A stretch of DNA of 39,758 nucleotides from a virus: UHGV virus genome UHGV-0465656; one strand, given 5' to 3'. The translations under genes and the position numbers were made by a program. Positions 22,080 to 39,758 of the stretch are shown here, one piece after another. The notes under the pieces were generated by a model that was given only the letters and a program-made list of their open reading frames with translations, was not told the origin of the DNA and ran no database searches. The number at the start of each line of letters is the position of its first letter. The first letter of the stretch is position 1.

Positions 22080-22369
22080 TCTCCTTTACCGGCTGCGGCG
22101 GCCGACTCTTCATAGGCGCGTTTGGATGCATTCATAATGGCCGCCAGCGGTGAGTAAGCCCCTCCACCTGTGATAGTGTTGTGAATGGCAGCCATTGCCT
22201 CGCGCAGATTTCCGTGGCTCGCCTCCAGCTCAGCAATCCTCTTCTCTGCGGCCTCCAGCTCATCCAGCAGCGCCAGAACGGTTTGTGAATGTATATCCAT
22301 GTTGAACACGCCATGCTCTTGAGCTTTCTCTGCTGTTTTGCGCAGCGCCTGTTTGTCGATGTTGCTCAT
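22076..22369 (-). CDS. Hypothetical coiled-coil protein (97 aa)
   Basis: Start MSNIDKQALRK at 22369 (ATGA overlap); shares N-terminal pattern with the next gene. Confidence 0.5.
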   Translation of the reverse strand: MSNIDKQALRKTAEKAQEHGVFNMDIHSQTVLALLDELEAAEKRIAELEASHGNLREAMAAIHNTITGGGAYSPLAAIMNASKRAYEESAAAAGKGE

Positions 22370-23058
22370 TGGGCGGCCTCCTTGCGAAGTTGGGCGGCGC
22401 GAATTGCTTTCCACTGCGACCACATTCCGTTGTAATCAGTACCGGAAAGAGTTGAGTTGCGGTAGCCGTCATCAGTGCGCAAACCTTCTAGCGTGGTCTT
22501 AGAGATGAATATCTTCTCCATTACCCATTCTTCGAATAAATCACGCTCCGTCGCTTCATCTGGAATAGCACTTGCCCGTACTTCAGCCAGGAAAGCGTCG
22601 GTGGCTGGGGTTTTGTTATCTGACTCCAGCCACTGGTTGTAGTAATAATCGAACATGCCAGTAGGATAACCACATCCGCTGTGCACGTGGTCTTTCATAG
22701 CAGAACCACACATGCAGTAGTCATTGTCAGTATTACTAATGATGTCGATAAGTTGCTGTGTCCGTTGCTTCAACATCGCACTCTCCGCCGCCAGCGCCGA
22801 AAACTTCTCGTGTGCCAACTTAACAGCTGCATCAGCCTGCTTAATTGACTCAGTCGCTTTCTGGTGGTCTTCGGCCAGCCCTGCTAAATCAGCCTCCAGT
22901 TCGGCTAGGCGTTCATTTAATGCATCTCGTTCATCCAGTAGAGCCAGCACAACCTGAGGTGTGACTTTCATACGAAATGCCAGCAATTTTTGAGGTGTTG
23001 CTACTGTTTCAATTGCTACTGCTGCCTCACGCAGTGCCTGATAGTTAATTTTGCTCAC
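22366..23058 (-). CDS. Hypothetical protein (230 aa, GTG start), N-terminal coiled coil, Cys/His-containing C-terminal domain
   Basis: (M)[16 protein letters not shown]..; paralogous N-terminus to the 22076..22369 product. Confidence 0.5.
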   Translation of the reverse strand: MSKINYQALREAAVAIETVATPQKLLAFRMKVTPQVVLALLDERDALNERLAELEADLAGLAEDHQKATESIKQADAAVKLAHEKFSALAAESAMLKQRTQQLIDIISNTDNDYCMCGSAMKDHVHSGCGYPTGMFDYYYNQWLESDNKTPATDAFLAEVRASAIPDEATERDLFEEWVMEKIFISKTTLEGLRTDDGYRNSTLSGTDYNGMWSQWKAIRAAQLRKEAAQ

Positions 23059-23636
23059 TGGTTGCCTCCTTTGCGAAGCTGGGCGGCGATATCTTCGAGA
23101 ACGCCATCAGAGAATGAGCGGTCAAAATCTCCTTCCGGTGCATTAGCCATAAACTCAGTTGAGGTAAGAATCATCCGGGCAATATCCGCTGCGTTCTTCG
23201 CAGTATCATCAATAAAACCAGCTTCCCAGGCAGCCAGCATTCTGTTCGCCACAAAGTAAGCGCCTTCCTTGCGTGCTTCAGTCTTCACTTCATCCCAAAA
23301 AGCGTCGGTGACTTGGGTTTGCGGCATCCTTCCGTCTATTGCGCAGATATACGCATCAGATAGTTCACCCTGCTCGCCGTCAAACACGTAGCAACTCTGT
23401 ACGATAAATTTATTCAGCCACGCATTCTCCACAGCCAGCGCCGCGCACTTGGCCTCAAGGTTATCAATCGTGATTCCAGCAGAACGACACTCCCGCAACG
23501 CCGTTTCCAGTTTTGATTCAAGTTCACCGAACTTACGGACAAGGTATTCAGCGTTTGTTTCGTTAACCTTTAAATCTCGTGGGATGCATTTACCTTTCAG
23601 AAAACCATCCATCTCAATTAGTGACATTTGTTTCAT
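23055..23636 (-). CDS. Hypothetical protein (193 aa)
   Basis: ORF track; C-terminus ..[10 protein letters not shown] overlaps next start with the conserved junction motif. Confidence 0.5.
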
Positions 23637-35582: not shown

Positions 35583-35906
35583 ATGAAGATGCCAGAAAAA
35601 CATGACCTGTTAGCCGCTATTCTCGCGGCAAAGGAACAAGGCATCGGGGCAATCCTTGCGTTTGCAATGGCGTACCTTCGCGGCAGGTATAATGGCGGTG
35701 CGTTTACAAAAACAGTAATCGACGCAACGATGTGCGCCATTATCGCCTGGTTCATTCGTGACCTTCTCGACTTCGCCGGACTAAGTAGCAATCTCGCTTA
35801 TATAACGAGCGTGTTCATCGGCTACATCGGTACTGACTCGATTGGTTCGCTTATCAAACGCTTCGCTGCTAAAAAAGCCGGAGTAGAAGATGGTGGAAAT
35901 CAATAA
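35583..35906 (+). CDS. S: Holin S (lambda type, dual-start S107/S105)
   Basis: [107 protein letters not shown] matches recalled lambda S. Confidence 0.95.
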
Positions 35907-36366
35907 TCAACGTAAGGCGTTCCTCGATATGCTGGCGTGGTCGGAGGGAACAGATAACGGACGTCAGAAAACCAGAAATCATGGTTATGACGTCATTGTA
36001 GGCGGAGAGCTATTCACTGATTACTCCGATCACCCTCGCAAACTTGTCACGCTAAACCCAAAGCTCAAATCAACAGCAGCCGGACGTTACCAGCTTCTTT
36101 CCCGTTGGTGGGATGCCTATCGTAAGCAGCTTGGCCTGAAAGACTTCTCTCCCAAAAGCCAGGACGCTGTTGCGCTGCAGCAGATTAAGGAACGTGGCGC
36201 TTTGCCGATGATTGATCGCGGTGATATCCGTCAGGCTATCGACCGTTGTAGCAATATCTGGGCTTCACTGCCGGGTGCTGGTTATGGCCAGTTCGAGCAT
36301 AAGGCTGACAGCCTGATTGCAAAATTCAAAGAGGCTGGCGGAGCGGTCAGAGAGATTGAGGTATGA
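35890..36366 (+). CDS. R: Endolysin R (lambda-type lytic transglycosylase)
   Basis: [53 protein letters not shown].. matches recalled lambda R. Confidence 0.95.
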
Positions 36367-36800
36367 GCAGAGTAACCGCGATTATCTCCGCTCTGGTTAT
36401 CTGCATCATCGTTTGCCTGTCATGGGCTGTTAATCATTACCGTGATAACGCCATCGCCTATAAAGAACAGCGCGATAAGGCCACATCCACAATCGCTGAC
36501 ATGCAGAAGCGTCAACGTGATGTAGCAGAACTTGACGCCAGATACACAAAGGAGCTTGCTGATGCTAACGCGACTATTGAAAGTCTCCGTGCTGATGTTT
36601 CTGCTGGGCGTAAGCGCCTGCAAGTCGCCGCCACCTGTGCAAAGTCAACGACCGGAGCCAGCGGCATGGGCGATGGAGAAAGCCCAGGACTTACAGCAGA
36701 TGCTGAACTCAATTATTACCGTCTCCGAAGTGGAATCGACAAGATAACCGCGCAGGTTAACTACCTGCAGGAATATATCAACACGCAGTGCCTGAAATGA
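36363..36800 (+). CDS. Rz: Rz i-spanin (lambda-like N-terminus, divergent C-terminal half)
   Basis: [31 protein letters not shown].. as recalled for lambda Rz, then diverges. Confidence 0.88.
36562..36747 (+). CDS. Rz1: Rz1 o-spanin lipoprotein embedded in +1 frame of Rz
   Basis: [36 protein letters not shown]..: signal peptide, lipobox Cys, Pro-rich. Confidence 0.8.
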
Positions 36801-36850
36801 ACAATCATAGCCTCGTAATAGCGAGGCTTTTTACTAACCGAGGGTAAATA

Positions 36851-37039
36851 ATGTCATCTCCAATCATGAAGTATTTCGCTTATCAACACCTCCCCGCGCA
36901 TCTGCAGGAAGTAAGTAAGCCAATCGGTAACCTTGCGACACTGATGGATGAATCACTGCCTGACAGTGCTGAAAAGTCAGCAGGTCTCCGCAAGCTGCTC
37001 GAAGCTAAAGATGCACTGGTGCGAGCAAAGCTGGGGTAA
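36851..37039 (+). CDS. Hypothetical protein (62 aa)
   Basis: ORF track; followed by strong hairpin at 37040..37062. Confidence 0.4.
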   Translation: MSSPIMKYFAYQHLPAHLQEVSKPIGNLATLMDESLPDSAEKSAGLRKLLEAKDALVRAKLG

Positions 37040-37393
37040 GTCATTACAAAGCCCATCTACGGGTGGGCTTGATAATGAAACCGTGATTTACATCCCCACA
37101 ATCCGGGTATGTAAAAGATAGTTCAGGCGAGAACAGATTTAACTAAATCTGTGCACCACCAGTTAACGGCAGTACCGCGAAACAACCCAAGCCAGTAAGT
37201 GGGGAAATAACACTGGCAGCCACTGAAAGATGAACCTCCAGCCTTATGGCAAAAAATATTCTTTGTGGTGGCGGACTGATGGAAAGACATCGGTTATTGC
37301 AGAGGCCATTCAATGAGTGGTCTCGACAATGGCTTATACCCTACACGGGATAACTTAACTGATATCCCTTTTAACGGATAAACGGAGCCAACA

Positions 37394-37636
37394 ATGGCAG
37401 AGATTATTTCCATGACTGAAGAACAGAAATTCCAGTTAGAGATTTACAAACTGGTCATGAACCAGAACGCAGCCGCAGAGGAAGCATTTCATTTCATTGG
37501 CACTGACGAGCTGAAGCTTGAGCTATTCAAAATTCACTTCCAGTCAGGCGGCGCTAATTCAGATATCACGACCCGCACTATCGAAGCGGTGCGTAAATCG
37601 AAGGAAGCGTTAGACCTGTTCACCGCTGGAGTGTGA
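37394..37636 (+). CDS. Hypothetical protein (80 aa)
   Basis: ORF track; tightly coupled to next gene. Confidence 0.45.
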   Translation: MAEIISMTEEQKFQLEIYKLVMNQNAAAEEAFHFIGTDELKLELFKIHFQSGGANSDITTRTIEAVRKSKEALDLFTAGV

Positions 37637-37637
37637 T

Positions 37638-38027
37638 ATGGCTAAGGCCAAATGGCACAAACTCCCGGCGTTCACCATTCCGCTGTTTCAAAGTGCACAT
37701 GTCTACCTCGCAACAACCAGAGAACAGTTTCAGCACGCTGATAAATTCCTTGGCGGCAGCGGGGATGAGAAGCCATTCAATCTTGGGTTTGCAAGCAACT
37801 ATGAAAACACTGATACGGGTGAGCGATGCTATCTGATTGGAGTATTCGATCAGCAGATCGCTACGCTCGTTCATGAGTGCGCCCACGTCTGCTTTTACGT
37901 TTGCTCTGATGTCGGCGTGACGACAAGGCCTGAAGATGCCAACGAGACGTACTGTTACATGCTGGACAGGATGGTTAATCACTTCCTGCCATTCATTCAG
38001 GAGAAACAAGATGTATCACTGGAATAA
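37638..38027 (+). CDS. Hypothetical protein with HExxH motif (HECAH), possible zinc metallopeptidase-like
   Basis: ..QQIATLVHECAHVCFYVC..; 129 aa; upstream of terS. Confidence 0.5.
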   Translation: MAKAKWHKLPAFTIPLFQSAHVYLATTREQFQHADKFLGGSGDEKPFNLGFASNYENTDTGERCYLIGVFDQQIATLVHECAHVCFYVCSDVGVTTRPEDANETYCYMLDRMVNHFLPFIQEKQDVSLE

Positions 38028-38205
38028 TCAATCCCCTTATTGCCAATGCCAACGCTGCCCGTGCTGCGGGAAGATTGTTAACCAATTTACTGGCAAAAAT
38101 TTCTTCAAGACTGGTTATGGATATGGTGTTGCGGGTAGCGTTAATTGCTCTGGGGCTGCTGCTGAAACGACATCAAACACAGGCAAGCAGAAAGGAGCTA
38201 AGTAA
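38011..38205 (+). CDS. Small Cys-rich protein (64 aa; CQCQRCPCCGK)
   Basis: ATG 38011 after GAGAAA; in-frame part of ORF 37936..38205. Confidence 0.4.
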   Translation: MYHWNNQSPYCQCQRCPCCGKIVNQFTGKNFFKTGYGYGVAGSVNCSGAAAETTSNTGKQKGAK

Positions 38206-38299
38206 TGGTAATCAAAGTTTGTTCAGGCTCTCAGGGCTTCGACAACCCATCCAAATTCCGCGATGAATGGGATAAGCAAGCAGAAGGGAAATAATCAAT

Positions 38300-38788
38300 A
38301 TGGCAGCACCAAAGGGCAACCGATTTTGGGAGGCCCGCAGTAGTCATGGGCGAAATCCTAAATTCGAATCGCCTGAGGCGCTGTGGGCTGCTTGTTGTGA
38401 ATACTTCGAGTGGGCTGATGATAACCCGCTATGGGAGGGTAAGGTATTTTCATATCAGGGAGAAATAATTAAGGCTAATGTCCCTAAGATGCGAGCCATG
38501 ACTATTTCAGGATTGTGTACCTTCCTTGATATCACCAGGCAAACGTGGGGAACCTTCCGGTCAATGGAAGGTTTTTCTGACGTCACATCACGAGCGGAAG
38601 ACATCATCTACGACCAGAAATTTTCTGGCGCAGCCGCTGACCTTCTCAACGCTAACATCATCGCCCGTGATTTGGGCCTCAAAGAGCAGTCGCAAGTTGA
38701 AGACGTGACACCTGATAAGGGAGATCGCGATAAGCGACGCTCTCGTATCAAGGAGCTATTCAACCGTGGAACTGGACGCGATTCTTGA
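38300..38788 (+). CDS. Terminase small subunit (P22 gp3-like, 162 aa); pac site expected inside
   Basis: [99 protein letters not shown] matches recalled P22 gp3. Confidence 0.92.
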
Positions 38789-39758
38789 TAACCTGAGCGA
38801 CGAAGAGCAAATCGAGTTGCTCGAGCTACTCGAAGAAGAAGAGAACTACCGGAACACACACCTGCTATATGAATTTACGCCATACAGCAAACAGCGTGAG
38901 TTCATCGACGCCGGGCATGACTATCCAGAGCGCTGTTTTATGGCTGGTAACCAGCTTGGTAAGTCATTTACCGGTGCTGCCGAAGTCGCGTTTCACCTTA
39001 CAGGGCGTTATCCGGGCACAAAAGGCTATCCTGCTGATGGTAAATATGGCGGTGAGTGGAAAGGTAAGCGTTTCTATGAGCCTGTTGTCTTCTGGATTGG
39101 CGGCGAGACAAACGAGACGGTAACCAAAACGACTCAACGCATCCTGTGCGGTCGTATCGAAGAGAATGACGAGCCAGGCTACGGTTCCATACCGAAAGAA
39201 GACATCATTAGCTGGAAGAAGTCTCCTTTCTTTCCGAACCTTGTTGATCATCTTCTGGTTAAGCATCACACGGCTGATGGCGTTGAAGATGGCATTTCAA
39301 TCTGCTACTTCAAACCATACTCGCAAGGCCGTGCTCGCTGGCAGGGTGACACAATCCACGGCGTGTGGTTTGACGAAGAGCCACCATACAGCATTTATGG
39401 TGAAGGTCTTACCCGTACCAACAAATACGGGCAATTCTCAATTCTGACGTTTACCCCGCTTATGGGGATGTCTGACGTTGTTACCAAGTTCCTGAAGAAT
39501 CCCAGCAAGTCTCAGAAAGTGGTCAACATGACCATCTATGACGCTGAGCACTACACCGACGAGCAGAAAGAGCAAATCATCGCATCCTATCCTGAGCATG
39601 AGAGAGAGGCGCGTGCTCGCGGTATTCCTACGATGGGTAGTGGTCGAATCTTCCAGATACCGGAAGAGACGATTAAGTGTCAGCCGTTCGAGTGCCCTGA
39701 TCACTTCTACGTAATTGGCGGGATGGATTTCGGATGGGATCACCCACAGGCGCAGGTT
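38766..39758 (+). CDS. Terminase large subunit, N-terminal part (GTG start; aa 1-331), truncated by window end; continuation is the inverted segment 1234..728
   Basis: (M)[73 protein letters not shown].. matches recalled P22 gp2; absent from ORF track because it lacks an in-window stop. Confidence 0.9.

Follow-up and report, generated by a model that had tools for sequence, protein, structure and literature searches.

Orf129 and mini64, a predicted gluzincin-like protein and an overlapping cysteine-motif microprotein between the lysis and head genes of a P22-like phage

What do two small overlapping genes at the border of the lysis and head regions of a P22-like phage encode, and do they belong together? 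The virus genome UHGV-0465656 (39,758 nucleotides (nt), analysed over its full length and called the window here) is approximately a whole P22-like (Lederbergvirus-type) Escherichia coli phage or prophage genome, large parts of which are 93-97% identical to Dewey, IME10 and APC_JM3.2. At the end of its lysis cassette, directly before the head and packaging genes, the original prediction had singled out an open reading frame (ORF) of 129 amino acids (aa) with the string HECAH, suggestive of a small zinc metallopeptidase, and a 64-aa ORF overlapping it with the string CQCQRCPCCGK. Both ORFs were recovered as described, with an overlap of 17 nt (Table 1), and are referred to as Orf129 and mini64. 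On balance we think it probable that they are two separate accessory genes of the late operon, Orf129 being mini-gluzincin-like and mini64 a microprotein with a metal knuckle.

Orf129 belongs to phrog_1365 (function not annotated), referred to here as the Orf129/HkcC family, with its residues 1-125 aligned to profile positions 3-121 of 127. A tblastn search of 50,697 phage records retrieved matches in 81, and 79 of these covered at least 80% of the query. Over 124 residues Orf129 is 59-61% identical to Orf-129 of ST64T, Orf129 of phage L and gp70 of epsilon34; identity falls to about 42% for proteins of lambdoid mEp phages and to 35% for hkcC of P22 and HK620. Among sequenced phage isolates nothing exceeds 61% identity to the allele of the window, which was otherwise found in E. 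coli prophages and metagenomic viral contigs only. An exhaustive profile search enlarged the family to 862 representatives of 50%-identity clusters (E <= 0.001), nearly all of them 100-160 aa long. Comparison with the related locus L006 (dS ~1.4) gave a ratio of non-synonymous to synonymous substitution rates (dN/dS) of 0.034, indicating strong purifying selection. This value for the plus frame also speaks against an antisense ORF, likewise of 129 aa (37620-38009, minus strand), which we rejected as a gene.

Both Orf129 and hkcC have been annotated as hypothetical for more than 20 years, and pipelines sometimes label relatives SprT-like. Sequence comparison now places hkcC of P22 and HK620 in the same family as Orf129. 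HkcC of HK620, and the identical ORF of P22, is a 125-aa paralogue that keeps HECAH, NETYCY and the late-operon orientation but occupies another accessory site, after the ejection gene 16 in the immI region (HK620, L110 2510-2875, between sieA/hkcB and orf59a/mnt; P22, L008 575-952, 'section C', between sieA and orf59a/mnt). Several P22 records annotate promoter and terminator features at the hkcC site and no gene. The lambdoid phage mEp044 carries a longer version between its lysis and terminase genes, and in the N4-like phage phCDa a family member stands in a different context. Some family members of 170-194 aa (P0116-P0120, P0131 and P0134; mEp044_72, L109 3501-4085) have a Lys/Arg-rich C-terminal tail that ends ...KKGKRKPKAKEALVPRVMSFKRG and could be a nucleic-acid-binding or targeting extension.

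We then aligned 127 of the best-scoring representatives of the family, which are 23-49% identical to Orf129. The only invariant columns were H79, E80, H83 and E103; N102 was invariant in a closer set of 40 relatives. E103 follows H83 by 19 residues, giving the signature HExxH-x19-E with the same spacing as in thermolysin, and its family-wide invariance is, as far as these alignments reach, new. Six-frame translation of the window yields three HExxH strings in ORFs. That of Orf129 is not a chance motif, because it is the only one in a conserved ORF and is invariant throughout the family. In thermolysin (MEROPS M4) the zinc ligands are His142, His146 and Glu166. Thermolysin-type gluzincins share with Orf129 the HExxH, the interval of 19 residues, the Asn preceding the Glu and an invariant catalytic Glu. 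They differ in size (thermolysin ~316 aa, the Orf129 family ~125 aa), in having a C-terminal helical domain that Orf129 lacks and in being secreted with a propeptide, whereas Orf129 has no signal peptide; no significant sequence or structure match links them to Orf129. In a phmmer search of the Protein Data Bank (PDB) with the P22 paralogue, the best matches were Bacillus neutral protease and thermolysin (E 0.1-0.8), and the paralogue and thermolysin 133-179 could be aligned over 47 residues with no gap, HECAH falling on HELTH and NE on NE. At these E values the alignment shows the spacing and is not proof of homology.

The structure of Orf129 was predicted by AlphaFold2 (AF2) with a 40-sequence alignment. 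The model had a predicted local distance difference test score (pLDDT) of 84 and a predicted template modelling score of 0.80, and block pLDDT in the helix carrying HExxH was 93-95. HExxH lies on a predicted helix and E103 begins the next one, a placement of helices that is expected of a zincin. In the zincin fold a backing helix is followed by an edge strand, the active-site helix and then a 'glutamate helix', and the order of elements in the Orf129 model (Table 1) appears to fit this scheme. Two features by which gluzincins are recognized were found, namely a family-conserved HExxH on an alpha-helix, here a predicted one, and a candidate Glu ligand on the next helix, at least 18 residues after the second His, the latter at the level of sequence and secondary structure. 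No PDB structure matched the predicted fold significantly. A structure search of BFVD returned 28 neighbours at E <= 0.001, all small phage proteins, from phages as different as those of Pseudomonas, Ralstonia, Erwinia and Acinetobacter and crAss-like phages. A few of the neighbours are independently labelled SprT-like, PolyVal metallopeptidase or metalloprotease; 'PolyVal' metallopeptidase domains are part of polyvalent proteins, whereas Orf129 stands alone. The minimal zincin scaffolds named as nearest are the minigluzincins proabylysin and projannalysin, the predicted zincin-like protein 3e11 and Wss1/Spartan, which has been placed among the minigluzincins (PMC4559962).

When the profile of the 127 sequences was searched against the PDB, nine sequences scored at E <= 10 and all nine were HExxH zinc peptidases, including myroilysin (E 0.003), BMP1/tolloid and peptidyl-Lys metalloendopeptidase. 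Myroilysin aligned to the profile in two collinear segments, one of them comprising the N-terminal 'kWP..vPly' strand; the alignments to myroilysin and BMP1, both weak, are confined to the strand and the HExxH helix. We rejected assignment to the metzincins or astacins (HExxHxxGxxH), as C89 occupies the position six residues after H83 and there is no conserved downstream His. An identification with SprT was rejected for the wrong position of the third candidate ligand and a score below cutoff, and one with the TIGR04267 peptide hydroxylases of ribosomally synthesized and post-translationally modified peptides (RiPPs) for a score less than half the cutoff, the small size of the protein and a Cys peptide that is not co-distributed. 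Altogether, sequences and model suggest that Orf129 represents a distinct, unclassified family of minimal gluzincin-like proteins in which catalysis is predicted. The invariant HExxH-x19-E, a stronger signature than could be seen in the single sequence, and the zincin-like predicted topology partly support the earlier suggestion of a small zinc metallopeptidase, while the named protease families all stay below threshold.

mini64 begins at an ATG (38011) inside the 3' end of Orf129. The ORF listing extends its frame to an upstream ATG at 37936 (89 aa), but 38011 is the start preceded by AGGAG and is also used by database homologues of 63-64 aa; the AGGAG is identical in L004, L005, L006 and L007. 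None of the 17 relatives read (14 IMG/VR loci, L003, L004 and L006) has a disrupted frame, and in L006 the length of the ORF is kept by an in-frame indel of 6 nt. Against diverged copies, the ratio of non-synonymous to synonymous polymorphism (pN/pS) is 0.21-0.38 when read in the frame of mini64, against ~1-2 for either alternative frame, and codons 8-28 differ from L006 by five synonymous and no non-synonymous changes. mini64 is rare, with copies in 18 of 5,426 complete E. coli genomes; 17 of these align without an indel and that of E. coli A10 has a 1-nt deletion. By its ribosome-binding site, its preserved frame and this pattern of substitution, mini64 is a real gene.

A profile search identified relatives of mini64 among 66-96-aa proteins of unrelated metagenomic phages. 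They have in common only YCxCxRCPCCGK, and their tails are dissimilar, being Pro/Trp/Tyr-rich or Gly-rich. In an alignment of 12 proteins (63-96 aa), Y10, C11, C13, R15, C16, C18, C19, G20 and K21 are invariant. The codons of the motif vary synonymously across eight loci (TAT/TAC, TGC/TGT, CGC/CGA/CGT, CCG/CCA/CCC, GGG/GGT), so the constraint acts on the peptide. mini64 had no match in Pfam, PHROGs, NCBIfam or PADLOC, tblastn with mini64 found none in the 50,697 phage records, and a literature search for a function of the CPCCGK motif returned nothing. By its sequence, then, the uncalled mini64 belongs to a previously undescribed family of Cys-motif microproteins. C16-P-C-C19-G reads as a rubredoxin-type CPxCG knuckle and a CxC pair lies three residues upstream, which together suggest a minimal Cys4 metal site. 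mini64 resembles the rubredoxin-type knuckle and Cys_rich_CPCC (PF14206) in being small and cysteine-dense with C16-P-C-C19-G-K; unlike in the rubredoxin type, its second ligand pair would be the CxC and not a second distant knuckle. PF14206 itself was touched by one distant relative of mini64 only (E 0.61).

The motif proteins of other phages have differing neighbours: in L027 the gene lies between TerL and portal, in L024 it precedes an HNH endonuclease, and in L023 it has a primase/VapE gene downstream. We considered whether they are tied to DNA-packaging genes, as L027 and L024 would have it, and rejected this, as it is contradicted by the neighbourhood in L023. The 74-aa relative in L023 (1835-2059) combines the same YCQCQRCPCCGK core with a second cysteine cluster, CPICFTNPCMCSC, and lies upstream of a Toprim/VapE primase-helicase gene, a context of replication rather than packaging. 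A second CxCxxCxCC string in the window (CYCFNCYCC, plus frame 22942-23256) overlaps the minus-strand ORFs 22366-23058 and 23055-23636 and is probably a chance match.

Gene order was examined in the 80 closest IMG/VR loci with an Orf129 homologue. Every one of them has the homologue between the lysis genes and the head genes, with a DUF2560-type gene immediately upstream of it in 47 loci and immediately downstream in 6. The distance to the next gene is usually -17 to +5 nt, with some gaps reaching ~130 nt; that gene is Dec or Dec-like in ~30 loci and mini64 in 14, and several unrelated types of small terminase and DUF2560 are also found. ST64T, L and epsilon34 agree with the window in HECAH and NETYCY, in the position between lysis and head genes and, usually, in a DUF2560-type gene upstream, and differ in the gene that follows, which is Dec (Orf-134, gene 71) in these phages and mini64 with the 29-aa ORF micro29 in the window. 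ST64T Orf-134 starts with MANPNF; the paper on epsilon34 names this protein as Dec (PMC2629481).

At the same site, P22-like relatives have Rha, KilA-N, Gp49, Dec or nothing, so the region is indeed variable and the site is an accessory hot spot in these phages. Orf129 is dispensable, because close relatives such as APC_JM3.2, where it is cleanly missing, do without the gene. Within the window, DUF2560, Orf129, mini64, micro29 and terS abut or overlap their neighbours (the DUF2560 stop lies 1 nt before the Orf129 start), and no promoter-like or terminator-like site was found on the plus strand between 37394 and 38300. This tight packing, together with the lack of promoter or terminator signals, points to expression within the late operon rather than to self-contained cargo; Orf129 would be transcribed with the late genes and its translation coupled to that of its neighbours, and it would not be an autonomous moron. 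The description of the region as accessory cargo in the original prediction thus suits the site and not the genes, which are not free-standing.

Several observations weigh against two separate accessory genes with the proposed identities. The putative H79/H83/E103 site is drawn from sequence and predicted secondary structure, and the matches of Orf129 to named families are all below cutoff or weak and anchored on the short HExxH motif. No family in Pfam, NCBIfam or PADLOC scored above threshold: SprT-like (PF10263) reached 12.8 bits against a cutoff of 25.6 (E 0.11, residues 73-91 only) and TIGR04267 17.9 bits against 40 (E 0.0024, residues 75-104 only). Searches for a substrate, phenotype or expression data for Orf129 found none, and literature on hkcC, DUF2560, phage SprT-like proteins or anti-defence proteases yielded nothing on function. 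For mini64, AF2 gave no confident fold (pLDDT 46), which would not be surprising if a metal-dependent knuckle is joined to a disordered tail, PGAP does not call the gene, and very close variants differ by no synonymous and 2-7 non-synonymous changes in its frame. The L005 and L007 copies of mini64 are frameshifted.

Could Orf129 be a DNA-associated protease of the SprT/Wss1/Spartan kind, clearing proteins bound or cross-linked to phage DNA before or during packaging? SprT-like is the only Pfam family that it touches, four of the 127 relatives match this family at E <= 0.01, and one database homologue as well as some of the BFVD neighbours carry the label 'SprT-like family protein'. The gene is also directly upstream of the packaging and head genes, and the Lys/Arg-rich tails of several family members could bind nucleic acid. 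However, the PF10263 profile aligns with the HExxH helix and the preceding strand at a score far below its cutoff, and SprT-type enzymes have His as third ligand, whereas the candidate in Orf129 is a Glu at +19 with no conserved His downstream. The window protein has neither a basic tail nor a zinc ribbon, and P22 and APC_JM3.2 package their DNA without the gene at this site, so that we regard a role of this kind as unlikely. We give the same low credence to Orf129 being no enzyme at all and serving as a metal-stabilized adaptor or regulator (of head assembly, decoration or antirepressor-type proteins) with a zincin-like site that is structural only. Such a role would agree with the tight coupling to Dec, terS or DUF2560, with the immI location of the P22 and HK620 paralogue, next to mnt, arc and ant remnants, with the Rha or KilA-N genes that the locus often carries and with a predicted fold that resembles no solved protease significantly. 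Against it, the presumed catalytic Glu (E80) and the three ligand positions are all invariant in 127 very diverse members, a pattern to be expected of catalysis more than of a site that is structural only, and the only extra band of epsilon34 virions over those of P22 on gels, at ~15 kDa, is Dec (PMC2629481).

The original prediction had treated the HExxH and Cys-rich ORFs together, and a functional pair is conceivable in which mini64 would be a substrate of Orf129, an inhibitor whose cysteines cap the zinc of the active site in trans, or a donor of zinc; in a RiPP-like variant the HExxH protein would modify the Cys-rich peptide, in line with the weak match to the HExxH peptide-hydroxylase domain TIGR04267. 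mini64 starts inside Orf129 and always follows it directly in enterobacterial loci (the 14 IMG/VR loci, L003, L004 and L006), with three Orf129 alleles (63%, 91% and 98-100% identity). In E. coli A10, the sole case of mini64 without Orf129, the latter is deleted and mini64 frameshifted, but this prophage is decaying anyway (Rz pseudogene). Moreover, mini64 is the downstream gene in no more than 14 of the 80 loci, the contexts of the motif elsewhere are unrelated to one another, hmmsearch found no Orf129-like gene in the loci of the distant motif proteins, and TIGR04267 scores far under its cutoff. Since the motif family occurs elsewhere without an HExxH protein, the pairing is local and not general, and we judge a functional pair very unlikely. 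Even less probable, in our estimate, is that mini64 is not a gene, its frame being either a by-product of conserved DNA or a shadow of the true product, the +1 frame ORF at 38075-38266. The omission of mini64 by PGAP would be explained, as would the frameshifted L007, which fuses both frames, and the substitutions among close variants, which are all non-synonymous for mini64 and mostly at third positions of the +1 frame, although the counts are small. This hydrophobic ORF of 63 aa begins with TTG and is uninterrupted in every close copy. A stop interrupts it in L006, however, and its pN/pS is at least 1 against diverged copies (~1-2 against L020 and L022, where the mini64 frame gives 0.21-0.26), and we rejected it as a conserved product; the length-preserving indel in L006, the conservation of the motif at protein level with synonymous changes in unrelated phages and a strong AGGAG at ideal distance also argue for mini64.

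We therefore return to two separate accessory genes as the preferred explanation. Coding status, invariant residues, predicted topology, synteny and tight gene packing are the observations on which it is built, and from these we infer late expression, metal binding, catalysis, location, target and any interaction between Orf129 and mini64. Orf129 would be expressed late, along with the lysis and head genes. H79, H83 and E103 would hold one Zn2+, water would be activated by E80 as general base, and the substrate chain would lie along the beta-strand 63-69, just before the active-site helix. As Orf129 has no signal peptide or extra domains, it may be a cytoplasmic protease of narrow specificity, cutting one or a few specific host or phage proteins; that the target is a host protein, in the service of counter-defence or takeover, is a guess. 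mini64 would be translated from its own AGGAG site within the end of Orf129 and would consist of a 12-residue knuckle on a disordered tail, the knuckle probably binding one metal ion via four of its five cysteines.

Table 1. Features of the lysis-head border of the window and elements of the Orf129 model
Feature	Position	Strand	Remarks
Holin	35583-35906		Lysis cassette
Lysozyme	35890-36366		Lysis cassette
Rz	36363-36800		phrog_13, E 7e-73
Terminator-like hairpin	36809-36828		8-bp stem, then TTTTT
62-aa ORF	36851-37039	+	phrog_1761, E 5.5e-33; phrog_5120, E 3.1e-22
Strong hairpin	37041-37078	+	9-bp GC-rich core 37049-37070, UACG loop, outer stem
DUF2560 gene, 80 aa	37394-37636	+	Pfam PF10834, E 1.1e-42; phrog_571
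Orf129, 129 aa	37638-38027	+	phrog_1365, E 4.6e-37
HExxH codons, H79-E80-C81-A82-H83	37872-37886	+	Predicted helix 74-91
N102-E103 codons, proposed third metal ligand Glu	37941-37946	+	Start of predicted helix 103-128
AGGAG ribosome-binding site of mini64	37999-38003	+	7-nt spacer, inside Orf129 3' end
mini64, 64 aa	38011-38205	+	Cys-rich core; Gly/Ser/Thr-rich tail, predicted disordered
Y-C-x-C-x-R-C-P-C-C-G-K codons of mini64	38038-38073	+	Residues 10-21; invariant in 12 proteins
micro29, 29-aa ORF	38205-38294	+	Start overlaps mini64 stop (TAATG)
Small terminase gp3 (terS)	38300-38788	+	PF16677, E 8.3e-31; phrog_606, E 3.5e-71
Strand	Residues 11-14		Orf129 AF2 model
Strand	Residues 20-25		Orf129 AF2 model
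Helix	Residues 28-37		Orf129 AF2 model
Strand	Residues 50-56		Orf129 AF2 model
Strand	Residues 63-69		Orf129 AF2 model
Helix carrying HExxH	Residues 74-91		Orf129 AF2 model
Helix beginning at E103	Residues 103-128		Orf129 AF2 model

The region upstream of Orf129 contains the two other small ORFs noticed earlier, of 62 aa and 80 aa (DUF2560), and the low-coding stretch of ~350 bp between them (37040-37393), in which we found no convincing ORF. The 62-aa ORF covers only positions 78-138 of the 148 in the phrog_1761 profile and, the match being confined to the C-terminal part, may be a truncated remnant. A derivation from Rha, which is present at this site in relatives, was rejected since the two are unrelated. 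The strong hairpin reported for this region is real (-25 kcal/mol, z = -6.56, none of 200 shuffles folding equally well) and lies about 8 nt further right than originally placed. It follows the 62-aa ORF directly and has no U-tract. Matches by megablast to HK620, Sf6 and others begin at window positions 37039-37042, and the hairpin marks a mosaic boundary, because homology to HK620, Sf6 and IME10 starts exactly there; the block in common with HK620 and Sf6 has its left edge there, and the ~350 bp on its 3' side are 95-98% conserved in HK620, Sf6, IME10 and others. A search for Rfam families in 36700-38400 gave no match, and the PADLOC anti-phage defence profiles gave none at E <= 1 for Orf129, mini64, DUF2560 or the 62-aa ORF. 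The terminator-like hairpin at 36809-36828 lies directly 3' of Rz, within the supposed late operon.

micro29 follows mini64 in all loci read and stops 5 nt before terS. Its last ~60 nt (38232-38294) show almost no DNA change across six loci, including APC_JM3.2, which lacks Orf129 and mini64, and phages with another type of terS. L006, also one of the six, retains this 3' end amid far more diverged flanks, and a 110-aa gene follows there instead of terS. Pfam gave a weak match of micro29 to DUF2740 (E 0.11). micro29 could represent a conserved micro-gene, an element of translation initiation or a linker for recombination. The 110-aa gene, located between the micro-ORF and terS in L006 (1671-2003) and L082, takes the place of Dec in Salmonella phages; it has a sub-threshold match to DUF1737 (E 4.4e-4, 20.5 against 24 bits) and might be another head-associated accessory protein.

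At the ends of the window, positions 1235-1289 are the exact reverse complement of 39704-39758, and positions 1-55 that of 1283-1337 (55 nt each). Appending the reverse complement of 1-1234 to the end of the window produces an intact large terminase of 499 aa with the portal start directly after it. As this joining restores the large terminase, the first ~1.28 kb are inverted relative to the rest of the window, probably as an artefact of the assembly graph (k = 55) and otherwise as a real inversion.

Few phages have been studied as thoroughly as P22, HK620, L and ST64T, yet the conserved family of 862 clusters to which P22 hkcC belongs had no proposed activity before. Should neither prediction hold, the region would be ordinary accessory DNA of a P22-like prophage. 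It is tempting to speculate much further, that Orf129/HkcC is a large, unrecognized family of stand-alone late mini-proteases cutting specific host proteins (for instance immune sensors triggered by late proteins), that YCxCxRCPCCGK defines a new class of metal-binding microproteins and that mini64 loads or caps the protease zinc in this E. coli clade, although we consider it unlikely that all of this holds at once. mini64 illustrates that annotation pipelines overlook a conserved family of cysteine-motif microproteins of unrelated phages. The invariant HExxH-x19-E allows a precise hypothesis that is cheap to test, namely a hydrolase dependent on zinc for which point mutants can be named, and if Orf129 does cleave a host factor, a stand-alone protease would be added to the known phage counter-measures.

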